Assembly (NCBI GenBank): GCA_041908545.1
Contig: JAYRFE010000070.1
Location: forward strand, 1 to 39,587
Direction: 5' to 3'
DNA: 39,587 bases
From: Candidatus Moraniibacteriota bacterium
Lineage (GTDB): Bacteria; Patescibacteriota; Minisyncoccia; Moranbacterales; UBA1568
The notes under the pieces were generated by a model. The model was not told the DNA's origin, made no database searches, and saw only the letters and a list, made by a program, of their open reading frames with translations. Positions 368 to 38,786 of this stretch are shown in pieces (within the stretch, counting starts at the first letter, position 1; each line of letters begins with the position of its first letter). Position numbers and translations under genes: made by a program.

Positions 368-444
368 TGGCGGGAGCGACGGGACTCGGACCCGCGACCT
401 CCACAGTGACAGTGTGGCGCTCTAACCAGCTGAGCTACGCCCCC
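368..444 (-). tRNA. tRNA-Asp (anticodon GTC), CCA encoded
   Basis: Hand-folded cloverleaf: acceptor GGGGGCG/CGCTCCC (one G-U pair), D arm GCTC-AGCTGGTTA-GAGC, anticodon arm CCACA-CTGTCAC-TGTGG, T arm GCGGG-TCCGAGT-CCCGT, discriminator G, CCA. Length 77 nt. Confidence 0.9.
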
Positions 445-539
445 CTTCCTCGTTTTTGGAATCCCTCCCTTCCAAAATCCAGCCTCCATAGTTTGCAATA
501 TGGAGATTGGATTCCGCCAGAGAAAGTCCCGAACTGATG

Positions 540-613
540 TAGCAGGGATGGGAATCGAACCCATGACCTCAGCGTTATGAGTGCTGTGCTCTAACCGGCT
601 GAGCTACCCTGCC
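540..613 (-). tRNA. tRNA with anticodon CAT, elongator type (Met, or Ile2 if lysidine-modified)
   Basis: Cloverleaf: GGCAGGG-TA-GCTC-AGCCGGTTA-GAGC-A-CAGCA-CTCATAA-CGCTG-AGGTC-ATGGG-TTCGATT-CCCAT-CCCTGCT-A. It has the elongator-type pair C11:G24 and a G1-U72 wobble. No CCA is encoded. Confidence 0.85.
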
Positions 614-627
614 TCTCATTCCCTTTG

Positions 628-701
628 TTGCGGGGGGTGGATTCGAACCACCGACCTTTTGGTTATGAGCCAAACGAGCTGCCAGACTGCTCTACCCCGC
701 T
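628..701 (-). tRNA. tRNA with anticodon CAT and initiator-like features (probable tRNA-fMet)
   Basis: Cloverleaf: AGCGGGG-TA-GAGC-AGTCTGGCA-GCTC-G-TTTGG-CTCATAA-CCAAA-AGGTC-GGTGG-TTCGAAT-CCACC-CCCCGCA-A. Positions 1:72 are unpaired (A x A) and the D stem has A11:U24, both bacterial initiator hallmarks. The anticodon stem has only two of the usual three G:C pairs. Confidence 0.8.
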
Positions 702-774
702 ATTCATATTTTCCCGACACCTTGTACTTTCTGAACCGAAATCTTCACTTCTTCCGATATCCGAAGCGGCTCTG

Positions 775-848
775 TGGGCGATCCAAGATTCGAACTTGGG
801 ACCTCGACATTATCAGTGTCGCGCTCTAACCACCTGAGCTAATCGCCC
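775..848 (-). tRNA. tRNA-Ile (anticodon GAT)
   Basis: Cloverleaf: GGGCGAT-TA-GCTC-AGGTGGTTA-GAGC-G-CGACA-CTGATAA-TGTCG-AGGTC-CCAAG-TTCGAAT-CTTGG-ATCGCCC-A. Length 74 nt, with no CCA encoded. Confidence 0.9.
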
Positions 849-927
849 AAAAGACTTCTCTTGAAACGAAAACACCCCACCGAAACATCCGACAACAAAA
901 AAAACCAGCTTCCAAGCCAACGGATGT

Positions 928-956
928 ATAATACCCAAACCACCGAAAAAAATCAA
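928..956 (-). promoter_or_regulatory. Sigma70-type promoter upstream of tRNA-Ile (TTGATT-N17-TATTAT)
   Basis: On the minus strand, the -35 element TTGATT is at 951-956 and the -10 element TATTAT is at 928-933, with a 17-nt spacer. It sits between tRNA-Ala and tRNA-Ile. Confidence 0.5.
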
Positions 957-959
957 GGG

Positions 960-1035
960 TGGTGGACCCAAGCGGATTCGGACCGCTCGCCTCCTGCGTG
1001 CAAAGCAGGCGCTCTACCAAATGAGCTATGGGCCC
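960..1035 (-). tRNA. tRNA-Ala (anticodon TGC), CCA encoded
   Basis: Cloverleaf: GGGCCCA-TA-GCTC-ATTTGGTA-GAGC-G-CCTGC-TTTGCAC-GCAGG-AGGCG-AGCGG-TCCGAAT-CCGCT-TGGGTCC-A-CCA. The G3:U70 alanine identity pair is present. Confidence 0.9.
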
Positions 1036-11032: not shown

Positions 11033-14000
11033 CTAATTCCCACCGAGCCTCGACATCCACCCGAAATTATTCAGGAAAGTCCTCGTGATGACTTCCGTCG
11101 CATTGGCTTTCGACTGTTCCACCGGAACCGTCGATGGATCCGTCGTCGTCTTGTTTCCGGCCTCATCATACACTTCGACCTGGTAGCTATAAACATCGCC
11201 TGCCTCAGCCGGAATCGTGATGAGGTGATAGGTATTAAGCGAATCGTCGTTCGTCGACTGCTCGAACGATCTGGTCACGATACCCTTGGCATATGCCACA
11301 TGCAGACGGGAAGGTTCATCGGTTTCGATCTTGATGTAGACACTGGCCTGGGCATTGTTTCCCCGACCCGACACACGCCCCATAGACTTGTTCGAAAGGA
11401 CTTTCGGCGGTCGGGAATCCGTTCGTGTCGTTATCTTCTGTTCAAACGGGCTCGCTTGAATATTGTGCGTATCCATACCGGTGATGGTCACCGCATACTC
11501 CACAGCCGGATCCAAATCGGAGATTTCCGCGGAATGCTCGGTGACAAGATCTTCAGTCAAATAGGTATGGTTCTCGGAACTCCCGGCTGACTTGTAGTAG
11601 ATGAGCGTCGAAGTCGGAACGTTGGTGATATAGGAGATGACGATAGTCGGCAGATCGACGTCTTCCTTGTTCTCCACCTTGACATCGGACACGACCGGCT
11701 CTTCCGGCGTACTGAAAGCATACTCATCGGAAGAGAAGGAATTGAGATCTCCATCGATACAATCGATCTGCGCCCGATAATCCGAAGCCGGGTTCAACTG
11801 ATCGATTTTCTGGACATGACTCGAACCGCCCGATGTCTCTTCGATGCTGTATGAACCGTATTTCAGGGTACAAGTAGCGCTCACATTCGTTTTCCAGCTC
11901 ACATAAGCCGTGTGCAACTGAATATCCGTAACGGTCACATCGGAAATGACCGGCGGCGGGAGCGTCGTGAAGGTATCGATTTCCGAGGTCCCGATATTCC
12001 CATCCGGGTCGATATACTTCACCCGATAAAAGTATTTCGTTCCGGCATCCAGACCCTTGACCAAGACCTCATGTGTCGTGACGGAATCCACCTGACCGGT
12101 CGTCTCCCCGAGCGAAATGCTTTTTCCATATTCGATGAAAGAACTCGCGACACGATCGGTCGCCCAGGTGAAGGAGGTCTGAAAGGCTTGAGTCGTATAA
12201 CTCGGGGTGCCGACCAGTTTCGGGGCCGTCGTATATTTTCCTGTCGGAATGATCGAGACGACCGATGATGCCGCGGAATAATTACTCGTCTTATCCTTCG
12301 ATTTCACGTAGTAATAATGAAGTTTACTCTCGAGTGTCGTGTCCCCGGATGGCAACAGGATTTCCCCTGAATCGACATAGGCGCTCCCGGATGTCTTCGC
12401 TATTTCAGTAAATGTCACGTTGTCCTCGGACCGATAGATGACGAATCCATCGAAGTTGGCCGAATCGAGACCGTCCGGACGTACCCATTTGACCGCGATA
12501 CTGTATTTCGAGTTCTCCCTATCGGACGTATCGAAAATTTGGACCTTCCCAGGGATCGGAGGATTACTCGTGTCCGCCGTAAATGAAATCACTGCGTAGT
12601 TGTTGTATTCGATGTTTCCTGCTTCGTCCTCCGCAACCACGAAGAAAAGATTTTCTCCCTTCTGGGTCGCGAAAGCCCCTGGGCCGGCGGAAGTCAGGGA
12701 TGTCGACACCGTATTGTTCGCCGTCGGAAGCACATTTACCGAATAGTGATATATGAGTTTCGTGGAATCACCCACGAATGAAGCGGGTATACCCCAGGAA
12801 AAAGCGAAGGAATTGTTCGTGGAGGTCGTCGGAGTTACTGCCAGGCTCTGTGGCGGAGTCGGAGCGCTCGCACTGTAGTAGTATTCCTGCATCAACGGTG
12901 TCGAAGCGTTCCCGGCAGCATCGACGGCCCGGAGGTAGAATTTGTTCTTCCCCGACTGGTATGCGCCGACCAGATGATCCGCATTCGGAATCGTCACCTG
13001 GAACGCACCCGGATCATTGATATCCACCCAGACCCCGGGCGTATCCCCGTCCGTCCGGTATTGGAACTTCGTCACACCCGAATAATCATCCGTCACATCC
13101 GCTGCCCAAAGGAAAGCGTAATTATCCGTGGCGGTATACCCGGCCGGCGTCACCGAAATCGTGCTCGGATTCGTCGGTGCGACCGTATCATACTGATACG
13201 TGAAGGCCTCATAATTCGAAACGGGAATCATCCCGGCGAGATCGACCGCCTTGATCTTCAGATAATATGCCTGACCGGATGTCAAACCCGAAGCGGTATA
13301 GGTCGTCCCTGTCTGAAAACTCCCCAGACTGAACGCATCGGCGCCGCTATTCGTCCCGAAATAGACATAGTAACCGGCAATACCCGACCCACCAGGATTA
13401 TCACTGGCACCTCCTACCGACTTGGCAGCCGGCCACACGAAACTCGGCGCGCTCTGACTGCTCCAGTCACCAGGAAGAATCGGGGTCGTATGAGAGACAT
13501 CCGTATAAGCGGATACCGAAGACGGATTCGTCGGCGCATCCACGTCCTGATAGTACCGGACGGTGATATCGGTGATATTCGGTGAAAATATCTGATCAGA
13601 CGAAGAAAGCGTCGCCCGTACCTGAATGAAAGGATTCGCCGGTGAATCGATCTTCATCGTATGCGTCGTACCCGAAACCGAATCATTCAGGGCGGCCGTC
13701 CAACTTGACCAACTCGCACCGTCATCGGATGTCCGCGTCTCGATGGTGACAAACGTATTGGCCGGTGTCGTATAACTCACCGAAAGGTTGGCAAAATGAT
13801 ACACGGAAACGAGATTCATCGTCGCGGTCGTAAAGGTTCCCGTTTTCACGAATCCGGTATTTCCTCCCGAAGATCCGACCAGATAACTATACAGTCCGTC
13901 GGCATAGGAATTCGTCCCCGCTCCGGAGATGACCCAGTTCTTGTTGCTGCTGTACGCTCCCACACCGCCCGTCGTCACCAAGGCGGGTACCTTAAGCGCT

Positions 14001-17000
14001 GGCGTCGAACTGACCGTCTGCCAAGAACCCGGGGCCACCTGCGTCGTATCATATCGATAGTAATCGTTGGTCCCACCGCCGCGAGCGACATACAGGTAAC
14101 CGTCACCGGAATCGGTCAAACTCCCTCCGGCTCCGACCGTCCCGGGCACAGCGCCCAATGCCGCCCAGGATCCTCCGATCTGGAAGCGACACGCATTCGC
14201 CGTTCCTCCGGCCCGAGTGACGTACACATACCCTCCCTTATATACGATCTTCGATCCATCGCCGATATTTCCGCCACAGGCACCCGCCGTCATCGCCGTC
14301 ATCACCGACCACCGAGATCCGCTTATACCCTGAGTATCATAGCGCCACCAGACCAGAGCGCTTCCTTGTGTCAAATAGATATACCGGCTCCCGTCATACG
14401 TCATCGAAGATCCGGTCGTCACCTGTCCCGGCGGACGATCGGCGGTGATTTCGGTCCACGCATTGGTCGCGACATCATACGTAAAGAAGTACGTCGTAAA
14501 ACCGGTCCGTGTCGTACCGAGCGCTCCCGGAACATAGTAGACCTTTCCTTCCGTCTGATTAAAGAGGATACTCGCCCCGGTCGTCGCGCCCACCGGCAAC
14601 CTCGCAAGTTCAGAGAATGTCCCGGTCGTCACATTGTATTTCCCGAACGTATTATCCGAACCACCGCGGATAATATACAGATTCGTCGTATCGTCCGCAG
14701 CCATGAATGTCCCGGTCGTGTACGGAACGAATGAGTTGACCCCGGTAACATTCCCGGTCGGTACGGACGGACCAAAAAAACCGCTCCGAGGAAGCTCCCA
14801 GGTGCTATCGGATATGTTGTATCGATAAAAGCCCGTCGTTCCTCCTCCTCTCTGCAGATACGCATACCCATTATAGACAAATAAGGAAGCACCCGAACTT
14901 ACCAATGCCGGAACATTCGGCAAAGTGAACCAGGTATTGGTATCGATATCATACCGATAGAAGTTCTGCTGCATATTGGCTGTCGTCGCATTGTTGCCGC
15001 CGACCGCGAAAATGGATTGGGTGGTCGCATCAAATGCCAAGGTTCCACCATCATAAAAGCCTTCCGGTGCCGGAGCAAGCGGGGTCCAGGTATTCTGCGT
15101 TTCCCCGTGATCCGCATCCGTATGGATCGAATATTTCGCGAAATACGGGAGCAGATTCCCCTGTATCGCATACACGTTGTTCCGCTCATCATACACGCTG
15201 TCTGCCCCTTCATAGACGAATTGGCCGTTCACCGTATTCGGGTTGCCGAAATCGGTATTCGGGAGAGTCGTCCATCCGGGCGTACAACCGCTCTGTCCAT
15301 TACAGGTATCGTACCGATAAAACGCATCGTCATTCCCTGGCATGGCATAAATGTATCGCGACCCGTCATAGGACATGTTGCCGCCATAATCGAAGTTCTT
15401 CGGTGCACTATCGATGCTCGTCCAGGTATCCGTCGCGATCGTATACTGTAAAAATGAAGACCGAAGGTTTCCTTTTGCCAGATACAGATACCCGGAAGGA
15501 CCTTCAATGAGGGATCCTCCATTGTTCACCGTGGCAGCAAGAGTGGGAATTACCGCTTTCGTCGTCCAGGTATCCGTCTCGATCTCGTACCGATAGAAAG
15601 TATTCGTGCTGTTTCCGGCCGCCGTATAGAGACAATGATTACTGTTCCCCGCGCATGCTCCCGAAGCAAGTTCTCCGCCGTAGCCTATGTTTCCTGGCAA
15701 AAGAGAAAGGCGGGTCTGGTTCCAAATTCCGCTCACATTCGTGAGACTCACCGAGCCATCAGATTTGGATGTCGTATTACTCAGGGTTCCCGCATTGAAA
15801 TCCGCTTGGGAAGTCACGGTCTGGCTCAATACTGGGGAAGCCCCATCATATGAATACGTGAACGCGTCCCACGTCGAAGAACTCACATTCCCATTGCTAT
15901 CCTTCGTCTTGATACGGAGATAGTAAGACTGCGGAGCATGAAGGACGGTCTGTTCGAGAACGGTATTGGAAGTATAATTGAGCGCGGTCTGAAACACTCC
16001 GTCCGATACGGGATCGGCACTCGCGTTGGTTCCGAAATACACATAGTACCCCGCGACTCCCGAACCGCTATCGCTCGCCCCGGACCACTGGAAATACGGG
16101 TGATCGAAAGAATAGGCCGTACCCGAGGAAAGCGTTTCTCCTCCACTATTCGTGGAATACGCATTGATAACGGATGGGTTGACCGGGGCCGTCTCTTCGG
16201 AATTATAGGCGATAATGAACTTACCGACTGTCGGGGTACTCACTCCATCGCTCGTCGCCAAGGTGATCCTGACCTGGATATACCGCGCGGTCGGTGATTG
16301 TATGGTGCTCCCGGATACTGCCTGCCATGCCGACCAGGTACTCTGATCATCACTTGTCCGTGTCTCATAGGTCACCGTCGTATTCGCCGGCTGCGTATCA
16401 GTCGGGGTGAAATTTCCCCACGTATCCACGTGGGAAAGATCGAAGGTCTTACTCAGATACGTCCCGGAGGACGGATAATTCGACGCGGAAGCGGTATAGC
16501 TCCATATATCGGCAAGTCCTTGTCCGTTAGCCGCATAAAAAGAAGTGCCGCCGGCATACTCGATCGAAGCTCCGCTATACGGCCCGCGAGCAAAAGTATA
16601 CCCCTGATTCGCCGGCAGTAGTCTCCAGGTATCCGTACCCGGCGTATATTCCCAGAATTCATTCTTATAATATCCGGCCAAAGCATAGATCTTCCCGCCA
16701 TACACGGTCATGTCCGTACCGAGATACTGGGCGAAGGGTGTCGATCTGACCGTACTCCATGACCCATTGTACTTGAGCATCGCGGTCTCTCCGTTGCCCG
16801 GCATGACATAGATATCCGTCCCGATCGCGACCGTGCGAGCACCGATATTCGGAAAGTAATTCACGGTCCCGATAGTGATCGTCGAAAGCGTACTCCATCC
16901 GGTTCCCGAAACCCAACGATAAAACGCGTTCGTCCCTCCTCCCCGAATAGCGTAAATGGAGTTATCCGAAGCACACGCAAGAGCTGCTCCGGCTCCCGCC

Positions 17001-18351
17001 GCTGCCGGAAGCGTATTCGGTGAAGAGGAAAAGGTAGTCCAAGCATCCTCCGTATATCGGTAGAAGTTCACGCTGCCGGGCTGAGCGTAGTACGCATTCC
17101 CGTTACACCACACCCCCTTCGTATCCGTGTTGAGCGAATAGGGCAACACCGCCTTCGAACTCCAGGAATTGGTCGCGATATCGTATCGATAAAAGGCATT
17201 CGTCGCTCCTCCACGAGTCGCATAGACATACGCGGTCGCTCCCGTCTGTCCGTTCCAAATGAGATCACTACCAGTATTCAATCCAACTGCTCCATCCAGC
17301 ACCTGTTTCGGTCCGACCCACTGACCATTCGTCCCGAGTGTCGGATCGAATTTCCACATATCCGTCGTATTGAGACCACGAAAAGCGTAGATTTTGTTCT
17401 CCGTACTGCTGTAGGACAAGGAAGGATAATTCGTCGTCATCGGTGCGAACTCATTCGTCCCGGTCATCGAAAGCCAGGTCGTGGCAGCCACACTATAACG
17501 GAAGTAAGTGGTAGTGCTTCCACCACGCAGGACGTAGATATAGTTGTTCGCGAATACCGCCCGCTGTTCCCCGGCTGGAGCGGTCGGGATAGATGTTCCG
17601 TTCGACCAGGCGTTGGTCGACAGGTTGTACTTATACATCTGCACGCCCGGCGTCCCACGAAGCGCGTACAAGAAACCGTCTTGCCCATTGATCAAGTCTC
17701 CTCCGACTCCGATAGTACCGGTAACCGGAGCCCGGTTCAGCCACTGATCGGTAGCGACATCGTACTTATAGAAATCGGTACTCGTGTTCCCGCGAGCGAA
17801 ATAGATATTCGTACCATCGTTTTCGATGGATGCCCCCGAATATGGGGCATCAAGCAGATCAGCCAGACGCGTCCAGGTCTGATTGGCAATGGAATACTTG
17901 TAATACTTCAGGGAGTACCCGCCAAAAATCATATAAATATCTCCCGTCGCGGATACATAACTCATATCGGACCCAAGATAGGCCGGCACCGGAAGATCGG
18001 AAAGATTTTCCCAGAGATTATTCACCGTATCGTATCGCCAGAAAGCCTTGTCTGACTGACCGCGCGTCGCGTAGAGATAATTTCCAACCAGAACAGAAGA
18101 AGACCGGCGTTCACCGGCTCCTTGGTCGGCGCCCAAACTCGCTCGCTCCAACTTCCCGACGACTGCAATTGAATCGCGTCCGCAGAGCTCAGAGTCGTGG
18201 TACCGGTCTGTGTCCCCGTCTCCCACTCGGCCCGCGTATCGATAGAGACCGACTGAGGAGCGCTCAAGGCACCCGGAGTCGCCCCATACACCACTGCCAA
18301 CACGAGTCCCATCAAAGCGGTACGCCAGGTAAATCCTCGAAGAGAATGCAT
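11033..18351 (-). CDS. Giant secreted/surface protein (~2440 aa) with an apparent 1-nt frameshift near 18100-18105. It contains Kelch-like beta-propeller blades, jelly-roll-like modules and many FN3 domains.
   Basis: There are dozens of blades of the type xxYxxRGxxTxxFYRYDxxTxxW. Two super-repeats each end in a module like TFDLSHVDTWGNF...ARYIQVRITL plus an FN3 domain (GVAGYYVYFGTN...YYLRIKTKD). The C-terminal third is FN3 repeats (for example TKYFYRVKYIDPDGN). The signal peptide MHSLRGFTWRTALMGLVLAVVYGATPGALSA is encoded in a different frame (ORF 18022..18627). Confidence 0.85.
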
Positions 18352-18741
18352 TATCTTCGATGTCCATTTCCCCACGGCACGCATCATCGTCAACACATAC
18401 TGACGTCGAAGATATGCTTTCCCATGGCTTCCTCTTCGAATCACCGAGTAACTCGACAAAAATTCTTCCAGACTTTCCGCCTCAACGACCGCCCGCACTA
18501 CTTTTTGCGGCTTTTTTTGCCGAACAGCAAAAAGCGGGCCGATAAACGACCAAAAACGCCTTCGAATGAAAAGGAGTGTTCTTCGTACTTTTGATATTTC
18601 TTTTTCCATTCTTACCGAAAAACGCATGGGGGTTTTCCTGTAAATTTCTTTTCACCAAGAAAAATTTCCTCGAGAGCATCGGGCGACCGCAAGAAATCCT
18701 TCTCTTTATTAAGGATACCAGATTTCAGACTTACAAACAAA

Positions 18742-22838: not shown

Positions 22839-24253
22839 TTGAGATCCCGGGATGGTTTCATAGCATACCCGAATAAAAACGCGAAGAATAAGATCCCGAA
22901 ATGTGAAGTCCAGAGCCAGTGATCCCAGAAAAAACTCGGGAGAAGAGCGACGAGGCCAATGGATTGCGGACTGAAGAACAGAGATTTCGAAGACACAAAA
23001 GATACTACGGATCCGACAAACAAGGCGAGCCCGATCACACCGAGCTCCACCCAGATGAGAAGCAAGACATCGTGCGCCGGCTGGATTTCCCAGATCGGAC
23101 GACCAGGATTTTCTTTCATAAGTTGCGCCGTGAAATTCCCGGCTCCGACACCGATCAGCGGATATTTTCCGATAAGCATCCATGCGTCCCGAAACGCCGT
23201 GATCCGCTCAGATACCGACCCTTCCCGCTCGACTGTCACGGTATCGAATCTCGGAAAAATCTGCTCCCATAAGACAGATCCGAAAACGAATCCGGCCAAT
23301 CCAAGCATAAAAAAAACTTGCAGAAACCGCTTCCGAACTCTAAGTTGCCCCCCTCTCCAGACATGAAATCCCACCAGAGTGATTCCGAGTAGAATCCCAA
23401 GCCACGCCGTACGGGAAAACGTGAGAAGAAGACCAAGAAGAACGATGATGCTCCCTCCTTCGAAAAACAGCCGTTTCTTGATCGAAAGTGCCGATTGCGT
23501 AAGATACCCTATTCCCAAGACCAAAACGACACCAAGATACCCTCCGAGCATATTCGGATGCGGAAACGTACCGTATGCCCGTAGCCACCGACCAGATTCA
23601 TTCTTCAGCACCGATGTCCCGGCTTGCCAGGCTTCATGTCCACTCATCCCGAGCCACGACGAGACGAGCGTATTCTGCGAGAGAAATTGCCCGATACCGA
23701 TTACGCTCACGAGCACCGCTCCTGCGAAGAATGCTGTTGTGAGCAAGCCTGTTTCCCGTTTACCGAATGAACAGCTCAAAAGGAAGACCCCAGCCGCCAA
23801 AAGCAGCTTCACGAAAAAATATCCGGCCAACACCCGATCAGGTGCCCAGAGTATCGAAAGCCCGGCCCAGAAGATAAAGCCAGAAAACAAAGTACTCGAT
23901 TTTAAAAGAAAAGAGTCCAATGAATACTGGAACGTAAAAACAAACTTTTTCTTTGCTATTTGCTCGGAAGCAAAGGGCATCAGAAAAAGCTGTTTTTGCG
24001 TTCCAGTCAAACGCACCAACTGATGTTTTCGCCCCCTGGTACCCTGCCTTGACCGCCTACGCACAAAGTATCTCACTCCATACCACCCGAGTATCAACAC
24101 CAACAGAATATCCGTAGCATAGATACCAAGAGTCCCATACTGCCACTTCTCCCCGCCGATCATCGGCTCACGGAGGAAATACACCGTCTGAAACGGCAAC
24201 AAAAACATGAAAAGGGGAAAAGAAAAACGTGAGAATCGACCCATAATATACAA
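22826..24253 (-). CDS. O-antigen ligase/polymerase-like membrane protein (Wzy_C family) carrying an in-frame hairpin-repeat insertion
   Basis: At least 10 hydrophobic segments and the Wzy_C-type signature LLLTFSRTAWLGILLGITLV. The N-terminus LPFQTVYFLREPMIGGEKWQYGTLGIYATDILLVL is typical of these proteins. Codons for ...GTQKQLFLMPFASEQIAKKKFVFTFQ... are repeat copy a. Confidence 0.8.
   Translation of the reverse strand: MYIMGRFSRFSFPLFMFLLPFQTVYFLREPMIGGEKWQYGTLGIYATDILLVLILGWYGVRYFVRRRSRQGTRGRKHQLVRLTGTQKQLFLMPFASEQIAKKKFVFTFQYSLDSFLLKSSTLFSGFIFWAGLSILWAPDRVLAGYFFVKLLLAAGVFLLSCSFGKRETGLLTTAFFAGAVLVSVIGIGQFLSQNTLVSSWLGMSGHEAWQAGTSVLKNESGRWLRAYGTFPHPNMLGGYLGVVLVLGIGYLTQSALSIKKRLFFEGGSIIVLLGLLLTFSRTAWLGILLGITLVGFHVWRGGQLRVRKRFLQVFFMLGLAGFVFGSVLWEQIFPRFDTVTVEREGSVSERITAFRDAWMLIGKYPLIGVGAGNFTAQLMKENPGRPIWEIQPAHDVLLLIWVELGVIGLALFVGSVVSFVSSKSLFFSPQSIGLVALLPSFFWDHWLWTSHFGILFFAFLFGYAMKPSRDLKRAS
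23929..24004. repeat. Hairpin repeat copy a (core in orientation A on the plus strand), inside the ligase-like ORF
   Basis: ggaacgtaaaaacaaaCTTTTT-CTTTGCtaTTTGCTcggaAGCAAAgGGCATCAG-AAAAAGctgtttttgcgttcc. The arms pair with one T-G wobble and a small internal loop. Confidence 0.8.
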
Positions 24254-24264
24254 AAATTTCCAAC

Positions 24265-24852
24265 CTATAGGCTATCTCGTTGCCTGGTTAGCTCATCCTG
24301 AACCGATTTCCAAAAGGGCAAGAGGGCGGGAAAATTTGCCACTGCCTCATCAGCCCAGTGTAATAAAACAGGATAAATATCCTGACGCTCCCACTGCTTC
24401 ATGCCAAGATTATTGCGTTGGACGATAACTTCTATTTTATCCAAAGCCTTTGCGAATTTTGCCTCGATAGAAGACTGCTCTTCGTACTCCATCCACAACG
24501 CTTCCAATTCATTTCCAGTATTCCTAGGCAGGAGAGCGTATAATTCTTTGGCAGCTCGCAACTCTTTGGCATGTTGTTTTTGATGAGCATCACCATCGTG
24601 TTGATCCATGATCCACACATCACCAGCCACTGCCTCTACCAGATCATGCACGAGAATAATTTCAAGAGCTTTCAGTACATCAAGATCCACATCAAGTTCC
24701 CTAACAAAAATCAGCGCCATCAAAGCAACCCGCCAGCTATGCTCTGCCGGACTTTCTTTCCGTGAATTATCGCTGATAGACAATGCTCGCTGTATTGTTT
24801 TTAACTTCTCCGCCTTCTCTAAAAAAAGGAGTATTGCTCTCTCGTGTGCCAT
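24265..24852 (-). CDS. HD-domain hydrolase (YfbR-like 5'-deoxynucleotidase family)
   Basis: ESPAEHSWRVALMAL and ILVHDLVEAVAGD match the H...HD...D metal-binding pattern. The gene is visibly more AT-rich than its neighbours. Its stop lies 11 nt upstream of the ligase-like start. Confidence 0.75.
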   Translation of the reverse strand: MAHERAILLFLEKAEKLKTIQRALSISDNSRKESPAEHSWRVALMALIFVRELDVDLDVLKALEIILVHDLVEAVAGDVWIMDQHDGDAHQKQHAKELRAAKELYALLPRNTGNELEALWMEYEEQSSIEAKFAKALDKIEVIVQRNNLGMKQWERQDIYPVLLHWADEAVANFPALLPFWKSVQDELTRQRDSL

Positions 24853-24984
24853 AAAAATGAGTTCACAAAATGATTCCTTTCCGTAAGAGTAGCACTTTTT
24901 GATACTCTCACGCGATATATACTACTTTTCTCGACACAAATGAAAACGAAACGGCAGGATACAGAAACGATTTCACGAGAGGGC

Positions 24985-25060
24985 GAGGGGCGAGGGCGGC
25001 TTTTTCTGATGCCCTTTGATTCCGAGCAAACAGCAAGGAAAAAGATCGTCCTCGCCCCTC
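24985..25060. repeat. Hairpin repeat copy b (core in orientation B on the plus strand)
   Basis: gaggggcgagggcggcTTTTT-CTGATGCCcTTTGATtccgAGCAAAcaGCAAGG-AAAAAGatcgtcctcgcccctc. The arms pair with two G-T wobbles and a 1-nt bulge. Confidence 0.8.
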
Positions 25061-25079
25061 GGTACCCTGCCTTAACCGC

Positions 25080-25268
25080 CTACGCACTAAAGTATCTCAC
25101 ACCATACCACCCGAGTATCAACACCAACAAAATATCCGTGACATAGATGCCAAGAGTCCCATACTGCCACTTCTCCCCGCCGATCATCGGTTCACGGAGC
25201 AAATACACCGTCTGCAGCGGCAAGAGGAAGAAAAAAAGAAGCAGTATGTTTCTCCACCACATGCACAT
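25080..25268 (-). pseudogene. Truncated duplicate of the N-terminus of the O-antigen-ligase-like gene
   Basis: The fragment sequence LPLQTVYLLREPMIGGEKWQYGTLGIYVTDILLVLILGWYGVRYF matches the full gene's LPFQTVYFLREPMIGGEKWQYGTLGIYATDILLVLILGWYGVRYF. A 1-nt indel right after RYF causes a stop at 25080, and only about 62 codons remain. Confidence 0.7.
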
Positions 25269-25272
25269 GTCG

Positions 25273-25734
25273 TCATGCCTCCCCGGTTGTCGTGCCACCT
25301 GGATCGCCGAAGAAATCCCACAACATATACACCCCCTCCTCTTCTGTTTCGATACGCAACATCAAAACGGCGGTTATTTCTTTCAGGCCACTCAAATAAG
25401 ATTCTTTTCGTTCCGCTATCGATTCCGGTGTCTGATATTCATCGAAGAAACACAGCACTTGCGCTTCGATATCCTTCATCTTAGCAATAAATCCGACTGT
25501 CTTTTCCTGTTGTTCTTTCGAGACAGCCCTCTGAATCATCCCGGATACTATTTTCGGATAAAAAAAATCGTTTTCAAGCTTCAGATGACCTGCCAACTTC
25601 TTCAAAAAAGAAACTTGCAGATCAATGACACCGGCATATTCGGTCGCCAAGACGGCCTGGCGCTGAATTTCCCCGATCAATCTTCGAAGTTCCCTGTGTT
25701 GAGCGATAAGCACGCTGACCATATCTTCACCCAT
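25273..25734 (-). CDS. Hemerythrin-like (HHE cation-binding) domain protein
   Basis: All-helical ~150-aa protein with H-x3-E-type spacing (AQHRELRRLIGEI, AGHLKLENDFFYPKI, IETEEEGVY). The start is taken at MGEDMVSVL. The assignment rests on pattern only. Confidence 0.5.
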   Translation of the reverse strand: MGEDMVSVLIAQHRELRRLIGEIQRQAVLATEYAGVIDLQVSFLKKLAGHLKLENDFFYPKIVSGMIQRAVSKEQQEKTVGFIAKMKDIEAQVLCFFDEYQTPESIAERKESYLSGLKEITAVLMLRIETEEEGVYMLWDFFGDPGGTTTGEA

Positions 25735-26010
25735 AAGGCAGAATACCGAAAAACTTAAATGTCCGCTCTCCGATTCATTATACCAGAAACAAGCCCCGAA
25801 AGATATCCACCGCAAAAAAACAGACGGTCGCGCCGTTTTATTTCTCCCCGACGATTATCGGATCATACACCGTCCGTAGCGGTGTAGGAAGGAAAAAGGA
25901 CAAAAACGGACAAACTACGAAGCGTTTCATGTGCATACGAAATATTTCAAACCATGCCTAAAAAATCGCCTCTCATTGCCGAGGATAGCACTTTTTGATA
26001 CTCTCAGTCT

Positions 26011-33128: not shown

Positions 33129-33153
33129 CTGATAGCGGTTCAACCGCTATCAG
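33129..33153. repeat. Palindrome CTGATAGCGGTT-C-AACCGCTATCAG, copy 1 of the AGCGGTT..AACCGCT motif
   Basis: Perfect 12-bp arms, nested within CACCTGA...TCAGGTG (33117-33156), just upstream of rnhB on the minus strand. Confidence 0.7.
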
Positions 33154-33444
33154 GTGAGGGTTCCCTTTTTCCCTCAACCTGCTATACTTGGCTTACCATA
33201 AGCTTCTCTGCAAACCCCATGGAGCGATCCGGGCACTGAGAGAATCCACCGTCATGTCCAACCTCGAATATCCAGTTTCGAATTTTCTTTCGCTCCTTTC
33301 GGCGCGATTTTTTGTTGGAAATGGATGTCTTAAGAAGATTCAAAATTAGATTTTCGATACTCCATGCATATGGAACATCGGAAAGAACCACCTGTATCCC
33401 TCTTCACGGTATCCATAAATCACAAATCCGATATCTGATTTCAC

Positions 33445-36400
33445 ATGAACTTCACCCATCTCCACGTCCACTCGCACTATACTCTCTTGACCGCACTCGG
33501 CCGGCCGGAAGAACTTTTGGCGCATGCCAAGGAACTCGGACAGACCGCGCTCGCCCACACCGACACCTCCGCTCTCTACGGAGCGGTTGAATTCTACACC
33601 AAGGCCAAGGACTACGGGATCAAAGCGATCATCGGAGCCGAAATGTACGTCTGCCACGATCTCCACAGTAAAAACAATACCGCCGAAGACCGACGGCGTC
33701 ATACCATCGTCCTCCTCGTCAAAAACGAAACCGGCTACAAGAATCTCCTCAAGATCATTTCGATCGCCCAACTCGAAGGCTTCTACTACAAAGCCCGGAC
33801 TGATAAAGCTCTCCTCCGCCAGTATAGTGAAGGACTGATCGCACTTTCCGGATCGCTCCAGGGTGAAGTACCCTCCGAGCTCATCTATGGCGACTACGAT
33901 CGTGCCAAACTCGCCGCTCTCGAATATCAGGATATCTTCGGGGCTGGCAACTTCTACCTTGAAATCCAGCCGCATTTCAATCATGAAACTCACGCCACGG
34001 TCAATCAAGGACTGATCGCACTCTCGCGCGAGACGAGTATCCCTCTCGTTGCCGCGAATGACGTACACTATGTCCGCCGCGAAGACGCCGCTATCCAAGA
34101 CACGCTCCTCTGTATCCGGGACAATAAACGTGTCGACGACCGTGACCGCTTCTCGATGATGTCCCTCGATCTCTCACTCAAAAGCTCCGAGGAAATGATT
34201 GAAACCTTCAAAGATTTCCCGGATGCCATCGAGAATACCCAAAAAATCGTCAATGCCTGCCACTTCTCCTTTACCTTCGGTGTCAATCACCTGCCTGAAT
34301 ATCCGCTCCCGGAAGGTGTCACACCGGACGGATATCTACGCCAGCTCTGCGAAACGGGACTCAAGGAGCGCTTCGGTGATACCCCGACGACGGAAGAACA
34401 ACTCACCCGTCTCAACTACGAACTCGACATCATCGGCAAGACCGGCTTTGCGTCGTACTTCTTGATCGTCCAGGACTTCGTCAACTGGGCGAAAGACAAC
34501 GGGGTCGTGGTCGGTCCGGGTCGTGGTTCAGCCGCCGGCTCCTTCGTCGCCTACCTGACCGGTATCACCAACCTCGACCCGATCCAGTACGATCTCCTCT
34601 TCGAACGCTTCCTCAATCCGGAACGTATCTCCATGCCCGATGTCGATATGGACTTCGCCGATGATCACCGCGAAGACGTCCTGAACTACGTCCGCGAACG
34701 CTTCGGAGCCGACCATGTCGCACAGATCATCACCTTCGGAACCATGGCCGCCCGCGGTTCGATCCGCGATGTCGGACGTGCGCTCGGCATACCGCTTTCT
34801 CTTTGCGACCAGACCGCCAAAATGATTCCGATGTTCACTTCCATCAGAAAAGCCCTGGAAGAAGTCCCGGAATTCAAGACGCATTACGAAAGTAATGCCG
34901 AGGTCCGCCGCCTCGTTGACAACGCCCAGAAAATCGAAGGATTGGCCCGGCATGCCTCGATGCATGCCTGCGGCGTCGTCATCACCAAGGACCCGGTCAC
35001 CGAATACACCCCCCTCCAGCGTATTTCCGGTTCACGCGAAGGCGTCGTCACCCAATATGCCGCCTCAACCAAGAACAACGCGGTCGAAAAAATCGGCCTC
35101 CTCAAGATGGACTTTCTCGGTCTCAAAAACCTCACCATCATCCAGAACACCCTCCGTATCGTCCGGGCACTCGGCAAGTTCGAAGCACTGGCGCATACAC
35201 TCGGACTCAACCCGGATACCGCTTCCGTTACCGATGTGCTGGACAAACTACCGATCGATGATGTAGGAGCCTATCGGGTGCTCCAGGAAGCCCGAACGAC
35301 CGGCGTCTTCCAGCTCGAATCGACCGGCATGAAACGCTATCTGAAACAGCTGAAACCGACGGTCTTCGAAGACATCATCGCCATGGTCGCGCTCTATCGT
35401 CCGGGACCGATGGAATATATCCCCGACTTCATCGGCGGCAAACACGGCACCAAGCAGATCGAATATCTCCACCCGAAACTCGAACCGATTCTGAAGAACA
35501 CCTACGGCGTCGCCGTCTATCAGGAACAGCTCATGCAGATCGCTCGGGATCTTGCCGGTTTCTCACTCGGTGAGGCCGACGTGCTCCGCAAAGCCGTCGG
35601 AAAGAAAATCAAGGAACTCGTCGCGGAACAACGCATCAAATTCATCGAGGGCTGTGTCAAGCACGACATCACCAAACACGTCGCCGAACAGGTTTTTGCC
35701 TTCATCGAACCGTTTGCCGGTTACGGTTTCAACCGGTCCCATGCCGCCTGCTACGCGATGATCGGTTATCAGACCGCCTATCTCAAGGCTCACTATCCGG
35801 CCGAATTCATGGCCGCGCTCCTCACGAGCGATCAAAACGATACTGACCGCATCGCCATCGAAGTACGCGAGGCACGTGAAATCGGCTTGAGCGTTCTCCA
35901 ACCGGACATCAATGAAAGTTTCGAAAGCTTCGCGGTCATCCGGGGAGACGACGATATCGAGCGTATCCGCTTCGGTCTTCAGGCGATCAAGAATGTCGGT
36001 TCGGTCTGTGCGGAAGAGATCGTCAAGGAACGGAAGCGCGGCGGGAAATTCAAAAGTCTCGAAGACTTCGTCGAACGCGTCCAGACCAAGGATCTGAATA
36101 AAAAATCCATCGAAGCGCTCGCCAAGGTCGGCGCCCTCGACACCCTGGGCGAACGCGAGCAGATCCTCGAAAGCATCGATGCCATCATCCGCTACGGTAA
36201 GCAAGCCTCCACTCTGGCCGAGACACATACCGATAGCCTCTTCGGCTCCATGCCGCTTCCCAAGACCAAGATCAATCTCGCGCGAGCTATCCCGGCATCG
36301 AAACAGCAGCGCCTGGCCTGGGAAAAGGAGCTCCTCGGACTCTATGTCACCGGACATCCGGCCTCCGATTATCGGCATTACCTCAAAGAAACTACCACCC

Positions 36401-36975
36401 CACTCACCGATCTCGAAAAACAGGAGAATGACACCCGGATCCGCATCGGCGGTATCGTGACTTCCTCAAGACGAATGATCACTAAAAACGGACATCCGAT
36501 GTTCTTTATCGGTCTCGAGGATCTTACCGGCCGGACCGAAATCCTCGTCTTCGGCAAGACGGCGGAGCAAACCGACGGCTTTTGGAAAGAAGATGATATC
36601 GTACTCATCGATGCCCGCGTCTCTCACAAGGACGGCCAGCTCCGCTGTATCGCCGAAAGCGCCGAACGCCTTTCTCCCGATACCCTGACGCAGTTCGAGC
36701 GCGTGCGCGTCACCCGTGAGAAATCTGTGTCGGAAAAGGCACGGGCAAATGAGAACACCCTGACAGCTCCGAAACTCCTGATTACACTCGAAGAACAGGC
36801 TGATGCCGGACTCATCGGTAAACTCTCGGCCTTTCTCCGAACCGTACCGAAAGGAGAAACGAAAATCCTCGTCAAGATACACGGCACGACCATCGATACG
36901 CCCTTCTACATAAATCCCGAAGAAACGACCCTCGAACAGATACGTGCGCTCCAAGGTGTTGAATCAGTCGGATAA
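33445..36975 (+). CDS. dnaE: DNA polymerase III alpha subunit
   Basis: PHP N-terminus MNFTHLHVHSHYTLL, then GVVVGPGRGSAAGSFVAYLTGIT, ISMPDVDMDF, LLKMDFLGLKNLT, a C-terminal OB-fold region, 1176 aa. Confidence 0.97.
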   Translation: MNFTHLHVHSHYTLLTALGRPEELLAHAKELGQTALAHTDTSALYGAVEFYTKAKDYGIKAIIGAEMYVCHDLHSKNNTAEDRRRHTIVLLVKNETGYKNLLKIISIAQLEGFYYKARTDKALLRQYSEGLIALSGSLQGEVPSELIYGDYDRAKLAALEYQDIFGAGNFYLEIQPHFNHETHATVNQGLIALSRETSIPLVAANDVHYVRREDAAIQDTLLCIRDNKRVDDRDRFSMMSLDLSLKSSEEMIETFKDFPDAIENTQKIVNACHFSFTFGVNHLPEYPLPEGVTPDGYLRQLCETGLKERFGDTPTTEEQLTRLNYELDIIGKTGFASYFLIVQDFVNWAKDNGVVVGPGRGSAAGSFVAYLTGITNLDPIQYDLLFERFLNPERISMPDVDMDFADDHREDVLNYVRERFGADHVAQIITFGTMAARGSIRDVGRALGIPLSLCDQTAKMIPMFTSIRKALEEVPEFKTHYESNAEVRRLVDNAQKIEGLARHASMHACGVVITKDPVTEYTPLQRISGSREGVVTQYAASTKNNAVEKIGLLKMDFLGLKNLTIIQNTLRIVRALGKFEALAHTLGLNPDTASVTDVLDKLPIDDVGAYRVLQEARTTGVFQLESTGMKRYLKQLKPTVFEDIIAMVALYRPGPMEYIPDFIGGKHGTKQIEYLHPKLEPILKNTYGVAVYQEQLMQIARDLAGFSLGEADVLRKAVGKKIKELVAEQRIKFIEGCVKHDITKHVAEQVFAFIEPFAGYGFNRSHAACYAMIGYQTAYLKAHYPAEFMAALLTSDQNDTDRIAIEVREAREIGLSVLQPDINESFESFAVIRGDDDIERIRFGLQAIKNVGSVCAEEIVKERKRGGKFKSLEDFVERVQTKDLNKKSIEALAKVGALDTLGEREQILESIDAIIRYGKQASTLAETHTDSLFGSMPLPKTKINLARAIPASKQQRLAWEKELLGLYVTGHPASDYRHYLKETTTPLTDLEKQENDTRIRIGGIVTSSRRMITKNGHPMFFIGLEDLTGRTEILVFGKTAEQTDGFWKEDDIVLIDARVSHKDGQLRCIAESAERLSPDTLTQFERVRVTREKSVSEKARANENTLTAPKLLITLEEQADAGLIGKLSAFLRTVPKGETKILVKIHGTTIDTPFYINPEETTLEQIRALQGVESVG

Positions 36976-37009
36976 CATATTTTTAAAAGTTCCTTGTACA
37001 GTCTCTATA

Positions 37010-37088
37010 CGGAAGGCACTCTCTTACTTTTTCCTTGCTGCGTATTCGGAAATACGGGGCATCAGAAAAAGCAAGAGAGTACCTTCCG
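37010..37088. repeat. Hairpin repeat copy c (orientation A)
   Basis: cggaaggcactctcttaCTTTTT-CCTTGCtgCGTATTcggaAATACGgGGCATCAG-AAAAAGcaagagagtaccttccg. The arms are 23 nt with two C-A mismatches, which would be G-U pairs on the opposite strand. Confidence 0.85.
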
Positions 37089-37157
37089 CTTCATCGGGAA
37101 TATATTTCTACACTCCATCATTCGTACACTTTAAGGCAGAAGGTTTCTCAAGTATGG

Positions 37158-37233
37158 AGGGAGTGAGACTTCTCTTTTTTTGATGCCGGTGTTTCTGAAC
37201 ACGTCGCAAGAAAAAAGAGAAACCTCACTCCCT
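37158..37233. repeat. Hairpin repeat copy d (orientation B)
   Basis: agggagtgagacttctCTTTTTT-TGATGCCgGTGTTtctgAACACgtcGCAAG-AAAAAAGagaaacctcactccct. The arms have two adjacent mismatches. Confidence 0.85.
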
Positions 37234-37357
37234 TAGTATCTATCTCAAATCTCATAGGAAAAGCATTTCTAAAAAAATCATACTCCTTTTACTGACCTGA
37301 TGCATCAGTAAAGAGCGCTCTTTATGTTCACTTCAGGATGTGGTAAGGTATCCTTTC

Positions 37358-37398
37358 CCTTACAACGTGTTCAGAAAAATACGAGGCGCCAAAAAAGC
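37358..37398. repeat. Degenerate hairpin repeat core, copy e (orientation A)
   Basis: ccttacaacgtgttcagaaaaatacgaggcgccaaaaaagc compared with the family core ccttgcgacgtgttcggaaacaccggcatcagaaaaaag. The flanks (about 37325-37415) are only loosely self-complementary. Confidence 0.5.
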
Positions 37399-37478
37399 AA
37401 CTAGAAGGAACATTCTGTATCAAAAACAGCGCATTACTGCACGATACTATGGGATACGATAGGTGTCCGAAACGTGAA

Positions 37479-37554
37479 GGAAGGATAATTGCTCTTTTTT
37501 CTGATGCTGGTGTTTCTGAACACGTCGCAAGGAAAAAAGAGCGATTATCCTTCC
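37479..37554. repeat. Hairpin repeat copy f (orientation B)
   Basis: ggaaggataattgctCTTTTTT-CTGATGCTgGTGTTtctgAACACgtcGCAAGG-AAAAAAGagcgattatccttcc. The arms are 22 nt, with 21 Watson-Crick pairs and one G-T. Confidence 0.9.
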
Positions 37555-37599
37555 CTACTCTACGACATAGAAAACATTTTTAAAAAAACTCATCTTATT

Positions 37600-38529
37600 A
37601 TGGAATTACCCCCTCACAAACTGATCGTCATCGCCGGGCCGACCGCTTCCGGCAAGTCAGACCTAGCCATCGAGCTGGCGCATCGGCTGAACGGCGAAAT
37701 CATCTCGGCCGATAGCCGCCAGGTGTACAGCGGCATGAATATCGGCACTGGTAAGGTGCTCCGGGATTCGGAATCGGCGGCAGATGATGAATATATCTCC
37801 GGCGGCATCCGCCACCACCTCATCGATATCGCCAAACCGAACGAAGCGTACAATATCTCGGATTTCCTCCAGGATGCCAATCACGCACTCACCGGTATCC
37901 GCGCTCGCGGCAAGCGACCTCTCGTCTGCGGCGGCACGCATTTCTGGATCCAAGCACTCCTCGAAGGAACGAGTTTTCCGGCTGTTCCGCCCGATCCGGT
38001 CCTGCGGGACCACCTCAGCACCAAGACCACCGATGAGCTCTACACTCTGCTCAAAGCACAGGATCCGACCAGAGCCGCGACTATCGACCGGCAGAATCCA
38101 CTCCGCCTCATCCGCGCTCTCGAAATCGTCGCCGCTCTCGGCACAGTCCCCTCGATCACCCGACACGAACCATCAACCGCCGAAAACCACCCCACGATTC
38201 TCGTTCTCAATCCCCCGAAAGAAGTCCTCCGCGAGCGCATCAGGACGCGGCTTCTTAACCGATTCGCATCCGGCATGGTCGAAGAAGTCGAAAGGCTTCA
38301 CGGACAAGGAATCGATTGGGAGCGCCTTGAGAGCTTCGGCCTCGAATACCGATTCATAGCGGAATTCCTCCAAGGTAAACGAGATGAAACGTCCCTGCAA
38401 GCCGACCTCGAGCACGCCATCTGGCACTACGCCCGTCGACAGCTCTCCTGGCTCCGCCGCTGGGAACACCAGGGAACGACCCTTACCTGGATATCGGATC
38501 CCAAAGAAGCGATGAACCTCCCCTTCTAA
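37600..38529 (+). CDS. miaA: tRNA dimethylallyltransferase
   Basis: MELPPHKLIVIAGPTASGKSDLAIELA and ISADSRQVYSGMNIGTGK. The start is taken at ATG 37600, because the ORF-track start at 37489 lies inside repeat copy f. Confidence 0.93.
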   Translation: MELPPHKLIVIAGPTASGKSDLAIELAHRLNGEIISADSRQVYSGMNIGTGKVLRDSESAADDEYISGGIRHHLIDIAKPNEAYNISDFLQDANHALTGIRARGKRPLVCGGTHFWIQALLEGTSFPAVPPDPVLRDHLSTKTTDELYTLLKAQDPTRAATIDRQNPLRLIRALEIVAALGTVPSITRHEPSTAENHPTILVLNPPKEVLRERIRTRLLNRFASGMVEEVERLHGQGIDWERLESFGLEYRFIAEFLQGKRDETSLQADLEHAIWHYARRQLSWLRRWEHQGTTLTWISDPKEAMNLPF

Positions 38530-38585
38530 AGCTCCTGCTACCCATATCGATCCAAAAAAAGAGCACTCATCATCCCAACAAAAAA

Positions 38586-38665
38586 GGGGAGGGTGCTTTT
38601 GGCTTTTTTCCTTGCGACGTGTTCGGAAACACCGGCATCAGAAAAAAGCCAAAAGCACCCTCCCC
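38586..38665. repeat. Hairpin repeat copy g (orientation A), the best-preserved copy
   Basis: GGGGAGGGTGCTTTTGGCTTTTTT-CCTTGCgacGTGTTcggaAACACcGGCATCAG-AAAAAAGCCAAAAGCACCCTCCCC. The arms are 24/24 perfect Watson-Crick pairs. Confidence 0.9.
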
Positions 38666-38716
38666 GCTCCACAAGGCTCCATGCCAGAGCTCAGGGCCTA
38701 TCCCGATAGGGTCTAA

Positions 38717-38736
38717 ATAGCGGTTTCAACCGCTGT
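38717..38736. repeat. AGCGGTT..AACCGCT palindrome, copy 2
   Basis: ATAGCGGTT-TC-AACCGCTGT, nested within GGTCTA...TAGACC (38710-38745). Confidence 0.6.
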
Positions 38737-38766: not shown

Positions 38767-38786
38767 GTAGCGGTTGAACCGCTATC
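38767..38786. repeat. AGCGGTT..AACCGCT palindrome, copy 3
   Basis: GTAGCGGTT-G-AACCGCTATC, nested within CCGACA...TGTCGG. It lies 15 nt downstream of the LamG-gene stop on the minus strand. Confidence 0.6.

Follow-up and report, generated by a model that had tools for sequence, protein, structure and literature searches.

Proteobacteria and Firmicutes are well known to carry small dispersed palindromic repeats, and the repetitive extragenic palindromic (REP) elements within bacterial interspersed mosaic elements (BIMEs) alternate in orientation. Patescibacteria have tiny genomes with very little non-coding DNA. The subject of this report is the spacer between dnaE and miaA on a contig of a Candidatus Moraniibacteriota bacterium (GenBank assembly GCA_041908545.1, contig JAYRFE010000070.1); the whole stretch that was analysed, 39,587 nucleotides long, is called the window. 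This spacer is a cluster of hairpin repeats of about 80 bases, which belong to a previously undescribed family present in a few related Patescibacteria, and literature searches for such repeats in the candidate phyla radiation (CPR)/Patescibacteria found none described. Among the closest described systems, REP elements are 20–40 nt long and have conserved stems and a GTAG or CGTC tag (PMC3733652). They are intergenic stem-loop palindromes that occur singly or in clusters, are associated with recombination and, in E. coli, influence mRNA stability and bind host proteins (PMC3184786). Rickettsia palindromic elements (RPEs) reside in a reduced genome both between genes and in frame in housekeeping genes, where they supply a conserved peptide but do not destroy the protein (PMC10969869).

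The repeat unit described here is about 80 bp long, and its single strand folds into one long hairpin. It reads as an arm of 16–19 nt, a T-run with an invariant TTTT, YY-GATGC, a mini-stem, GCAAG-R, an A-run, and the complementary arm. The arms form 16–19 base pairs that are specific to each copy and have a purine-rich outer end, and the clamp of 5–7 bp between T-run and A-run is common to the copies. The apex of 29–30 nt is asymmetric and consists of GATGC, a mini-stem of 5–6 bp capped by a TCYG loop, and GCAAG. At least seven members (copies a–g) and one one-armed remnant lie in the window (Table 1), of which a covariance model built from 23 copies finds the six intact ones, a(−), b(+), c(−), d(+), f(+) and g(−). 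The 29-nt core GATGCYGGTGTTTCYGAACACGTCGCAAG was found three times in the window with at most one mismatch in a pattern search, compared to 0.00 occurrences expected from shuffles. Folded as single-stranded DNA and set against dinucleotide shuffles, copies c, d, f and g gave z values of −9.9, −8.3, −9.5 and −9.1, respectively.

In a MAFFT alignment of the 23 copies, 97.1% of the alignment cells are paired versus 73% in shuffles, the covariation score is 0.70 versus 0.20 (none of 500 shuffles reached 0.70), and double-sided changes occur at 23 of 33 pairs. The mini-stem covaries by core type, with GTGTT/AACAC in type 1 and CGTATT/AATACG in type 2; variants are GTATT/AATAC in L029 (relatives are given by L-numbers), TGTGTT/AACACA in L006, and TTTGCT/AGCAAA in copies a and b. 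Between 13 non-orthologous type-1 copies, the cores are 96% identical and the arms 36% (composition null 26%), the excess in the arms being due to a gradient from a purine-rich outer to a pyrimidine-rich inner part and not to common sequence. The family thereby inverts the usual pattern, with a conserved loop and free stems.

Sequence reading, a repeat finder and a pattern search agree that four copies of alternating orientation fill the spacer, c(−) d(+) e(−) f(+), as a first-pass annotation had proposed. Its estimate of 140–185 nt between copy centres is matched by measured distances of about 147, 172 and 149 nt, and its view that the spacer holds no credible ORF was upheld, as was its reading of the miaA start at 37489 as a part of copy f. 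The mechanical ORF 37489–38529 begins with TTG within copy f, and its repeat part reads LLFFLMLVFLNTSQGKK, which has one L more than had been written. The true start of miaA is the ATG at 37600, because the homologues are 309 aa long and the IPPT domain begins at residue 41. In this way, the repeat family yields false gene starts and false small ORFs. An artefact of assembly had been raised as an alternative, and it was answered by the independent assembly L004, which carries the same spacer, palindromes included; the repeat architecture also recurs across independent assemblies.

Eight versions of the dnaE–miaA spacer were recovered and compared. The window has c, d, two palindromes, e and f, and L004 has the same series followed by a further copy, h(−). 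L036 has c, d and h. In L028 and L013, c is followed by a chimera of the d left arm and the f right arm, which arose with a loss of 321 bp by crossover between direct cores, and L037 has a single c/f chimera joined within the A-run. In L038, c has been deleted at a GGAAG microhomology, an f-like copy is present, and h consists of the left arm only. L005 and L007 have an f-like (+) and a second (−) copy, both of which are deleted in L031 (98% identical to L005) with breakpoints inside one arm and inside another. Throughout all eight versions, the position, orientation and arms of orthologous copies are constant. Copy c, which begins 35 nt 3' of the dnaE stop, has orthologues with unchanged arms and orientation in L004, L028 and L036, copy d in L004 and L036, and copy f in L005 (L005a) and L038, where the arms carry compensatory changes. 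Orthologues of copy g, downstream of miaA, are found in L004, L013, L028, L036 and probably L035.

The differences between the versions are deletions, core-to-core or A-run recombinants, and duplications. Where a copy is present in one version and absent in another, the breakpoints lie inside copies or the version is a recombinant, and among the eight spacers there was neither an insertion with clean flanks nor a clean pair of empty and filled sites. The mobility that the first-pass annotation implied was thus not borne out; of the polymorphism it had looked to in relatives, differences in presence and absence do occur in the spacer, and flips of single copies were seen at other loci. These comparisons show that the copies are inherited vertically at fixed sites, with arms that drift yet stay complementary and an apex that is nearly invariant while the arms can pair. 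They likewise show that the copies serve as rearrangement breakpoints, through crossovers in the core or A-run, deletion of the core and one arm, deletions that span two copies, local duplication, and flips of the apex between its inverted arms. The family drives intergenic rearrangement at the strain level, which matters for the assembly of metagenome-assembled genomes (MAGs) and for strain typing. At the contig end of L013 (1–74), a T-run (TTTTTTTTG) stands in place of CTGATGCTG in a copy of f, which is probably an assembly-end artefact at a repeat and illustrates how the repeats break assemblies.

Within the spacer, the pair of f-like (+) and h-like (−) copies is the oldest layer. The d–e and f–h units are old paralogues: the stretches that follow d and f can be aligned with each other, and a left arm and flank are common to e and h. 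It had been claimed that the sequences between copies are all unrelated to one another, which does not hold for the stretches after d and after f (repeat families D3/D4; comparison with L004, L036 and L038). Copy e was correctly recognised as degenerate, and it does not fold (z = +0.44 against dinucleotide shuffles) and is without a complementary right arm; however, it is not merely a decayed copy. In the alignment, copy e shows homology to copy h of relatives in its left arm and in the left half of its core, and its right core half is of type 2 and c-like (AATACGAGGCGCCAAAAAAG). The alternating series c(−) d(+) e(−) f(+) arose by duplication of an ancestral +/− pair and subsequent chimeric recombination, and not by independent insertions. 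A simple unequal crossover between c and h as the source of e and f fits the chimeric core, but was rejected as the arms of d and f differ. Arms formed as inverted copies of the local flank, an idea prompted by copy b, the locus upstream of dnaE in the window, and L031, are less likely, as parsimony favours deletion from an intact hairpin in each of these cases. Copies x and y, which have novel arms, are confined to the L004 lineage. Copy x lies in a segment exchanged between two copies of a second dispersed palindrome (see below), which suggests ectopic recombination rather than transposition.

The two adjacent perfect palindromes between d and e, CTGATGCATCAG and TAAAGAGCGCTCTTTA, had been positioned exactly by the first-pass annotation. 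By an estimate made here with equal base frequencies, 0.15 perfect palindromes of 12 nt and 0.01 of 16 nt are expected by chance in 624 nt. The d–e spacer of the window and L004 reads CCTGATGCATCAGTAAAGAGCGCTCTTTAT at this place. At the homologous site upstream of the h/e copy, L038 reads CACTGATCAGATACACCGATACAGAGCACTCTCTTCAT, which contains CACTGATCAG...ACAGAGCACTCTCTTCAT, and L036 reads ATGCTCTCTTTAT; the homologous site in the f–h spacer of L004 reads CCCGATACAGAGTACTCTCTTCAT and contains ACAGAGTACTCTCTTCAT. Imperfect precursors are thus present as CTGATCAG and AGAGCACTCT in L038, AGAGTACTCT in the f–h spacer of L004, and GCTCTCTTTAT in L036. Because the homologous positions of relatives hold these imperfect forms, the palindromes of the window are lengthened and perfected forms of older quasi-palindromes (CTGATCAG, AGAGYACTCT), and fold-back or template-switch correction might have perfected them. 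They had initially been taken for collapsed repeat copies, in which core termini or an arm/A-run junction are fused head to head. CTGATGC forms the 5' end of the apex, and copy f contains GAGC/GCTC along with A/T runs (pair I7, 82% complementary over 17 nt), which would fit such an origin. It is nevertheless very improbable, as the precursors at that site in relatives are unrelated to a repeat copy and the likeness to the repeat extends over only 5–7 nt.

Flips of the apex were identified at two orthologous sites. Copy a lies in frame in a gene for an O-antigen ligase (Wzy_C) and is translated as ...LTGTQKQLFLMPFASEQIAKKKFVFTFQY..., and the peptide KQLFLMPFASEQ.AKKKF is kept in ligase homologues down to about 53% identity. 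It does not occur in more distant homologues, which in the protein alignment are without about 35–40 residues at the insert site. Twelve of the 15 insert-bearing proteins in the alignment read ...QKQLFLMPFASEQ.AKKKF..., whereas the other three (P0007, P0011 and P0015) read ...RSFSLLFARKQRASEKA..., the reverse complement of the apex. The reading of copy b, RSFSLLFAR.QRASEKA, recurs in these three proteins, which are intact. At the DNA level, the ligase loci of L031 and L032 have homologous arms and an inverted apex, with both forms in frame. The repeat therefore gives the ligase a translated insert of 30–40 residues in two mirror-image versions. The second flip concerns the locus upstream of dnaE, at which the right arm in L004 is joined to the opposite core end compared to L036. 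The copy at this locus is intact in L036 (5812–5897), L037, L005, L007 and L031, and the window retains its left arm alone. The ligase region of the window also shows a duplication of the N-terminal coding part. The second copy, which adjoins hairpin b, carries a truncation and a frameshift, and the two copies enclose an HD-domain gene; a further degenerate fragment resembling the ligase N-terminus follows (Table 1).

The conservation of the apex was compared with the divergence of the neighbouring gene. Between the window and L005/L031, the DnaE proteins are 93% identical and the 4-fold degenerate sites only 44%, which is near saturation, and the two lineages have the same type-1 apex. Copy f and L005a have common flanks on both sides and are for this reason considered orthologous; the differences between their arms are paired substitutions (GGAAGGATAAT/ATTATCCTTCC versus GGAAGGGTGAT/ATCACCGTTCC). 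Pairing of the arms is also visible in the ligase proteins, with LTG...QY in some relatives and LAG...QH in others. In two older chimeras that do not pair, copy e of the window and the c/f chimera of L037, the apex has decayed; in the d/f chimera of L028 it is intact, but this one is too young for a judgement. By an own reading, the apex is open in five of its six reading frames, which is not significant alone. An apex that is invariant across saturated synonymous divergence and decayed where the arms cannot pair suggests purifying selection on the apex as presented by the stem, and a conserved loop that is apparently under such selection points to a trans-acting partner.

Taken together, the hairpins are regarded, with moderate confidence, as a lineage-specific family of dispersed interrupted palindromes comparable to BIMEs and RPEs, with a selected apex that acts as a recognition site. 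A trans-acting factor would recognise the apex on a single strand in its folded state, be it extruded DNA or a transcript, and would seem to prefer the strand reading GATGC...GCAAG. The arms might serve only for presenting the apex, and their complementarity could be kept by compensatory selection, by hairpin-templated repair, or by both, while the orientation relative to genes would be largely free.

Several observations weigh against this interpretation. Its functional step is an inference from sequence, as a binding factor, a transcript or a cruciform was not observed. Sites of the type-1 apex that vary between types stay invariant within type 1, which fits recent homogenisation by gene conversion at least as well as selection acting site by site. 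Individual copies are dispensable, as the spacer of L031 is without any and L028 has lost d–e, so that the benefit per copy must be small. The new-arm copies of L004 (L004x and L004y) occur in one lineage only. Furthermore, the non-coding stretch 37100–37500 is 96–99% identical between the window and L004, which exceeds the conservation of the flanking dnaE 3' end and miaA (66–92%) and of the 4-fold degenerate sites in dnaE (64%); this could mean that the spacer as a whole has a function not yet recognised, or that the tract was exchanged by recombination recently. L028 has lost most of this stretch. Finally, the strand asymmetry of the arm mismatches, 25 G.T versus 10 A.C on the GATGC strand (p = 0.017), comes from 35 mismatches in an alignment made with a model that was built in that orientation.

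The same asymmetry is part of a possible, though doubtful, alternative in which the hairpins act in cis as RNA elements and function solely in the orientation GATGC...GCAAG. As hairpins in 3' untranslated or intercistronic regions, they would stabilise transcripts, process them (e.g. by RNase III) or terminate them; an RNA-binding protein would attach to the apex, and the copies in opposite orientation would be by-products. Covariation together with conserved unpaired bases is typical of functional RNA, and in 20 of 24 copies it is the GATGC strand that folds more stably as RNA. Eight copies lie 8–63 nt downstream of a stop codon, and six of them have the sense orientation with respect to the gene that ends there. 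L036, L038 and L001 have a conserved sense copy 34–35 nt beyond the gatB stop, and in five lineages the sense orientation is found for the copy upstream of dnaE. The two antisense cases among the eight are c and g, the latter being sense only to the convergent gene 134 nt away. On the other side, c, e and, in relatives, h are antisense in the dnaE–miaA spacer, the apex is flipped at two orthologous sites with both forms persisting, the few antisense copies (c and b) still have G.T rather than A.C on the GATGC strand, and one copy is translated within a gene. A conserved promoter, terminator tail or flank motif is lacking: scans for sigma-70 promoters and terminators gave no common signal and flagged no copy as an intrinsic terminator, which would be a GC-rich stem with a U-tract directly after it. 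A T-run after the stem is found only in g among the window copies, and a T-rich tail also occurs in its orthologues (L004, L013 and L035) and in L005c, without a consensus. These data are read as a mild preference for one folded strand and not as strict RNA polarity.

A classical MITE (miniature inverted-repeat transposable element) or another element mobilised by a transposase (REP/RAYT- or IS200/IS605-like), which is still transposing and whose alternating copies are independent insertions, is quite improbable. The copies are small, non-coding, numerous and palindromic, occur in both orientations, cluster between genes and also lie in frame within one, and two with novel arms are restricted to the L004 lineage. 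However, the role of terminal inverted repeats would fall to the arms, and these differ from copy to copy, every polymorphism in the eight spacers is a deletion, recombinant or duplication, and a clean empty/filled pair is missing. A consistent target-site duplication is not seen either, as direct repeats of 5–6 nt flank only 3 of 24 copies, which is near chance, and in the 50-nt flanks of the 24 copies no position reaches 0.7 bit of conservation, with neither a tag nor a common motif. No transposase was detected among the 20 ORFs of the 39.6-kb window scanned against Pfam, and viral contigs gave two pattern matches, neither of which is a real copy. Next to no credence is given to units of an RNA-guide array, either TIGR-Tas stem-loops or CRISPR-like, with the variable parts as guides. 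TIGR arrays do have variable palindromic stems around a motif-bearing loop and occur in parasitic bacteria (PMC12045711), and CUGAUG resembles box C. The constant loop and variable stems are the opposite of guide spacers in a loop, though, and the copies lie 140–185 nt apart in both orientations and over 15 kb, one of them inside a gene. A Nop-domain (Tas) or Cas protein was not among the 20 scanned ORFs, and by hand analysis the conserved bases do not fit a canonical k-turn. Other readings of the apex were tried and rejected: a k-turn or box C/D, since a k-turn needs GA at a place where AG stands in the 3' strand (by hand), a hammerhead or hairpin ribozyme in CUGAUGC...GUC...GCAAG, since there is a single inner hairpin and no three-way junction (by hand), and parS, an IHF site or a GNRA loop (CGCAAG), which are inconsistent across core types.

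A more far-reaching reading, considered unlikely, takes the apex of about 43 nt (T-run, GATGC, mini-hairpin, GCAAG and A-run) as a selected and propagating module. It would represent a new class of structured single-strand element in Patescibacteria, maintained by a dedicated protein that recognises hairpins. Copying or conversion from site to site would not involve the arms, and fold-back (template-switch) synthesis would build or renew these locally. If this were true, spread and maintenance of the repeat would be neither cut-and-paste nor copy-paste of a fixed sequence.

The coordinates of the copies and of other features are given in Table 1. The neighbourhood of the spacer comprises dnaE, miaA and genes for RNase HII and a Laminin_G_3 protein, the latter convergent with miaA and separated from it by copy g.

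Table 1. Repeat copies, palindromes and further features of the window (positions and strands refer to the window).
Feature	Position	Strand	Description
tRNA genes	371-1035	-	cluster of five
Largest ORF	11033-18367	-	2444 aa
Copy a	23924-24008	-	in frame within O-antigen ligase (Wzy_C) gene; 63 bits (covariance model, also below)
Ligase N-terminal coding part	24037-24253		duplicated
HD-domain gene	24265-24852	-	
Copy b	24981-25065	+	attached to truncated duplicate of ligase N-terminus; flipped ("form 2") version of copy a; 60 bits
Second ligase N-terminal part	25062-25280		truncated, frameshifted
Ligase N-terminal-like fragment	~25800-25900		degenerate
Second palindrome	33133-33149		
One-armed remnant	33330-33345	+	TTAAGAAGATTCAAAA; left arm of the copy that relatives have upstream of dnaE; core and right arm deleted
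dnaE	33445-36975		ORF of 1176 aa; 93-95% identity to DnaE of relatives carrying PHP and DNA_pol3_alpha domains
Copy c	37010-37088 (arms 37010-37033 / 37065-37088; core 37034-37063)	-	type-2 apex GATGCCCCGTATTTCCGAATACGCAGCAAG; 86 bits
Copy d	37158-37233 (arms 37158-37180 / 37211-37233; core 37182-37210)	+	type-1 apex GATGCCGGTGTTTCTGAACACGTCGCAAG; 88 bits
Perfect palindrome	37297-37308	none	CTGATGCATCAG; identical in L004
Perfect palindrome	37309-37324	none	TAAAGAGCGCTCTTTA; identical in L004
Copy e	~37334-37397	-	degenerate, non-folding chimera; missed by covariance model
Copy f	37479-37554 (arms 37479-37501 / 37532-37554; core 37503-37531)	+	type-1 apex; 91.5 bits
miaA	37600-38529	+	tRNA isopentenyltransferase; true start ATG 37600; Pfam IPPT 1.7e-57; adjoins repeat cluster
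Copy g	38586-38665 (38583-38667 in the covariance model)	-	type-1 apex; perfect 25-bp arms, 100% complementary; 99.4 bits
Second palindrome	38718-38734		variant with an extra T
Second palindrome	38768-38784		

A second dispersed palindrome, TAGCGGTT[C/G]AACCGCTA (0.01 expected by chance), often lies 10–100 nt from a hairpin copy. Besides the sites in the window, it is present in L036 (5612, 11116, 11164 and 14355), L038 (15505), L035 (1257), L005 (6272) and L004 (82 and 249). In L036, L038 and L001, the order of gatB stop, 9 nt, second palindrome, 10 nt and hairpin is conserved, and in L004 a segment bearing copy x has taken the place of the one between two such palindromes.

In scans of public genomes and metagenomes, true copies of the hairpin were found only in a handful of related assemblies, namely a MAG of Patescibacteria, three MAGs labelled Bdellovibrionales, and several metagenome contigs. 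A further 16 matches in coding DNA from the metagenome pattern scan were without arms and were dismissed as chance. The homologues of the window proteins are named Moranbacteria or Moraniibacteriota by their sources, and by these names and the MAG titles the host belongs to a Patescibacteria lineage. Contigs L001, L003, L005 and L007, which bear the same repeats, come from MAGs titled 'uncultured Bdellovibrionales'; the dnaE of contigs so titled is 98% nucleotide-identical to that of L031 (WBZQ01000020.1), and their gene order resembles that of the Patescibacteria-like window, so that the taxonomic label or the binning may be wrong. A search of the window against Rfam at gathering scores returned tRNAs and no family match to the repeat, and at E ≤ 10 only generic hairpins of the miRNA-precursor type matched, far below threshold.

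Compared to REP elements and BIMEs, the repeats also form intergenic clusters of palindromes in alternating orientation, with c(−) d(+) e(−) f(+) in the window and h(−) added in L004. They differ in the unit of about 80 nt, in the copy-specific stems (36% identity in the arms versus 96% in the cores) and conserved apex, and in having neither a GTAG nor a CGTC tag in 24 copies with 50-nt flanks; none of the 20 scanned window ORFs is a transposase. Copy a resembles an RPE, as it is an in-frame palindromic insert that gives a conserved peptide. By description, however, RPEs are about 105–150 bp long and alike over their whole length within a family, whereas here only the apex is common; in addition, the same gene site holds the element in both directions in different relatives, and the phylum is unrelated. 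Correia/NEMIS, ERIC and SPRITE MITEs are likewise long hairpin repeats near gene ends, and the hairpins of their RNA serve as substrates for RNases or resemble terminators. Inversion in place can occur in Correia elements, and SPRITE has a preference for the ends of convergent genes, where copy g is also located. All of these have conserved terminal inverted repeats and target duplications, neither of which is found in the present family, in which only the inner T-run/A-run is common. TIGR-Tas arrays share variable palindromic stems around a loop with conserved motifs (PMC12045711), but their loops hold two variable spacers of 8–12 nt with box C/D, while here the loop is 96% identical and its variation is compensatory within the mini-stem. 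TIGR arrays are also compact and lie beside a Tas gene, in contrast to the dispersed copies of the window, among whose 20 scanned ORFs there is no Tas. The family thus departs from each of these named kinds in the features that define them and is a member of none of the named families, and its place is within the dispersed palindromic repeats.

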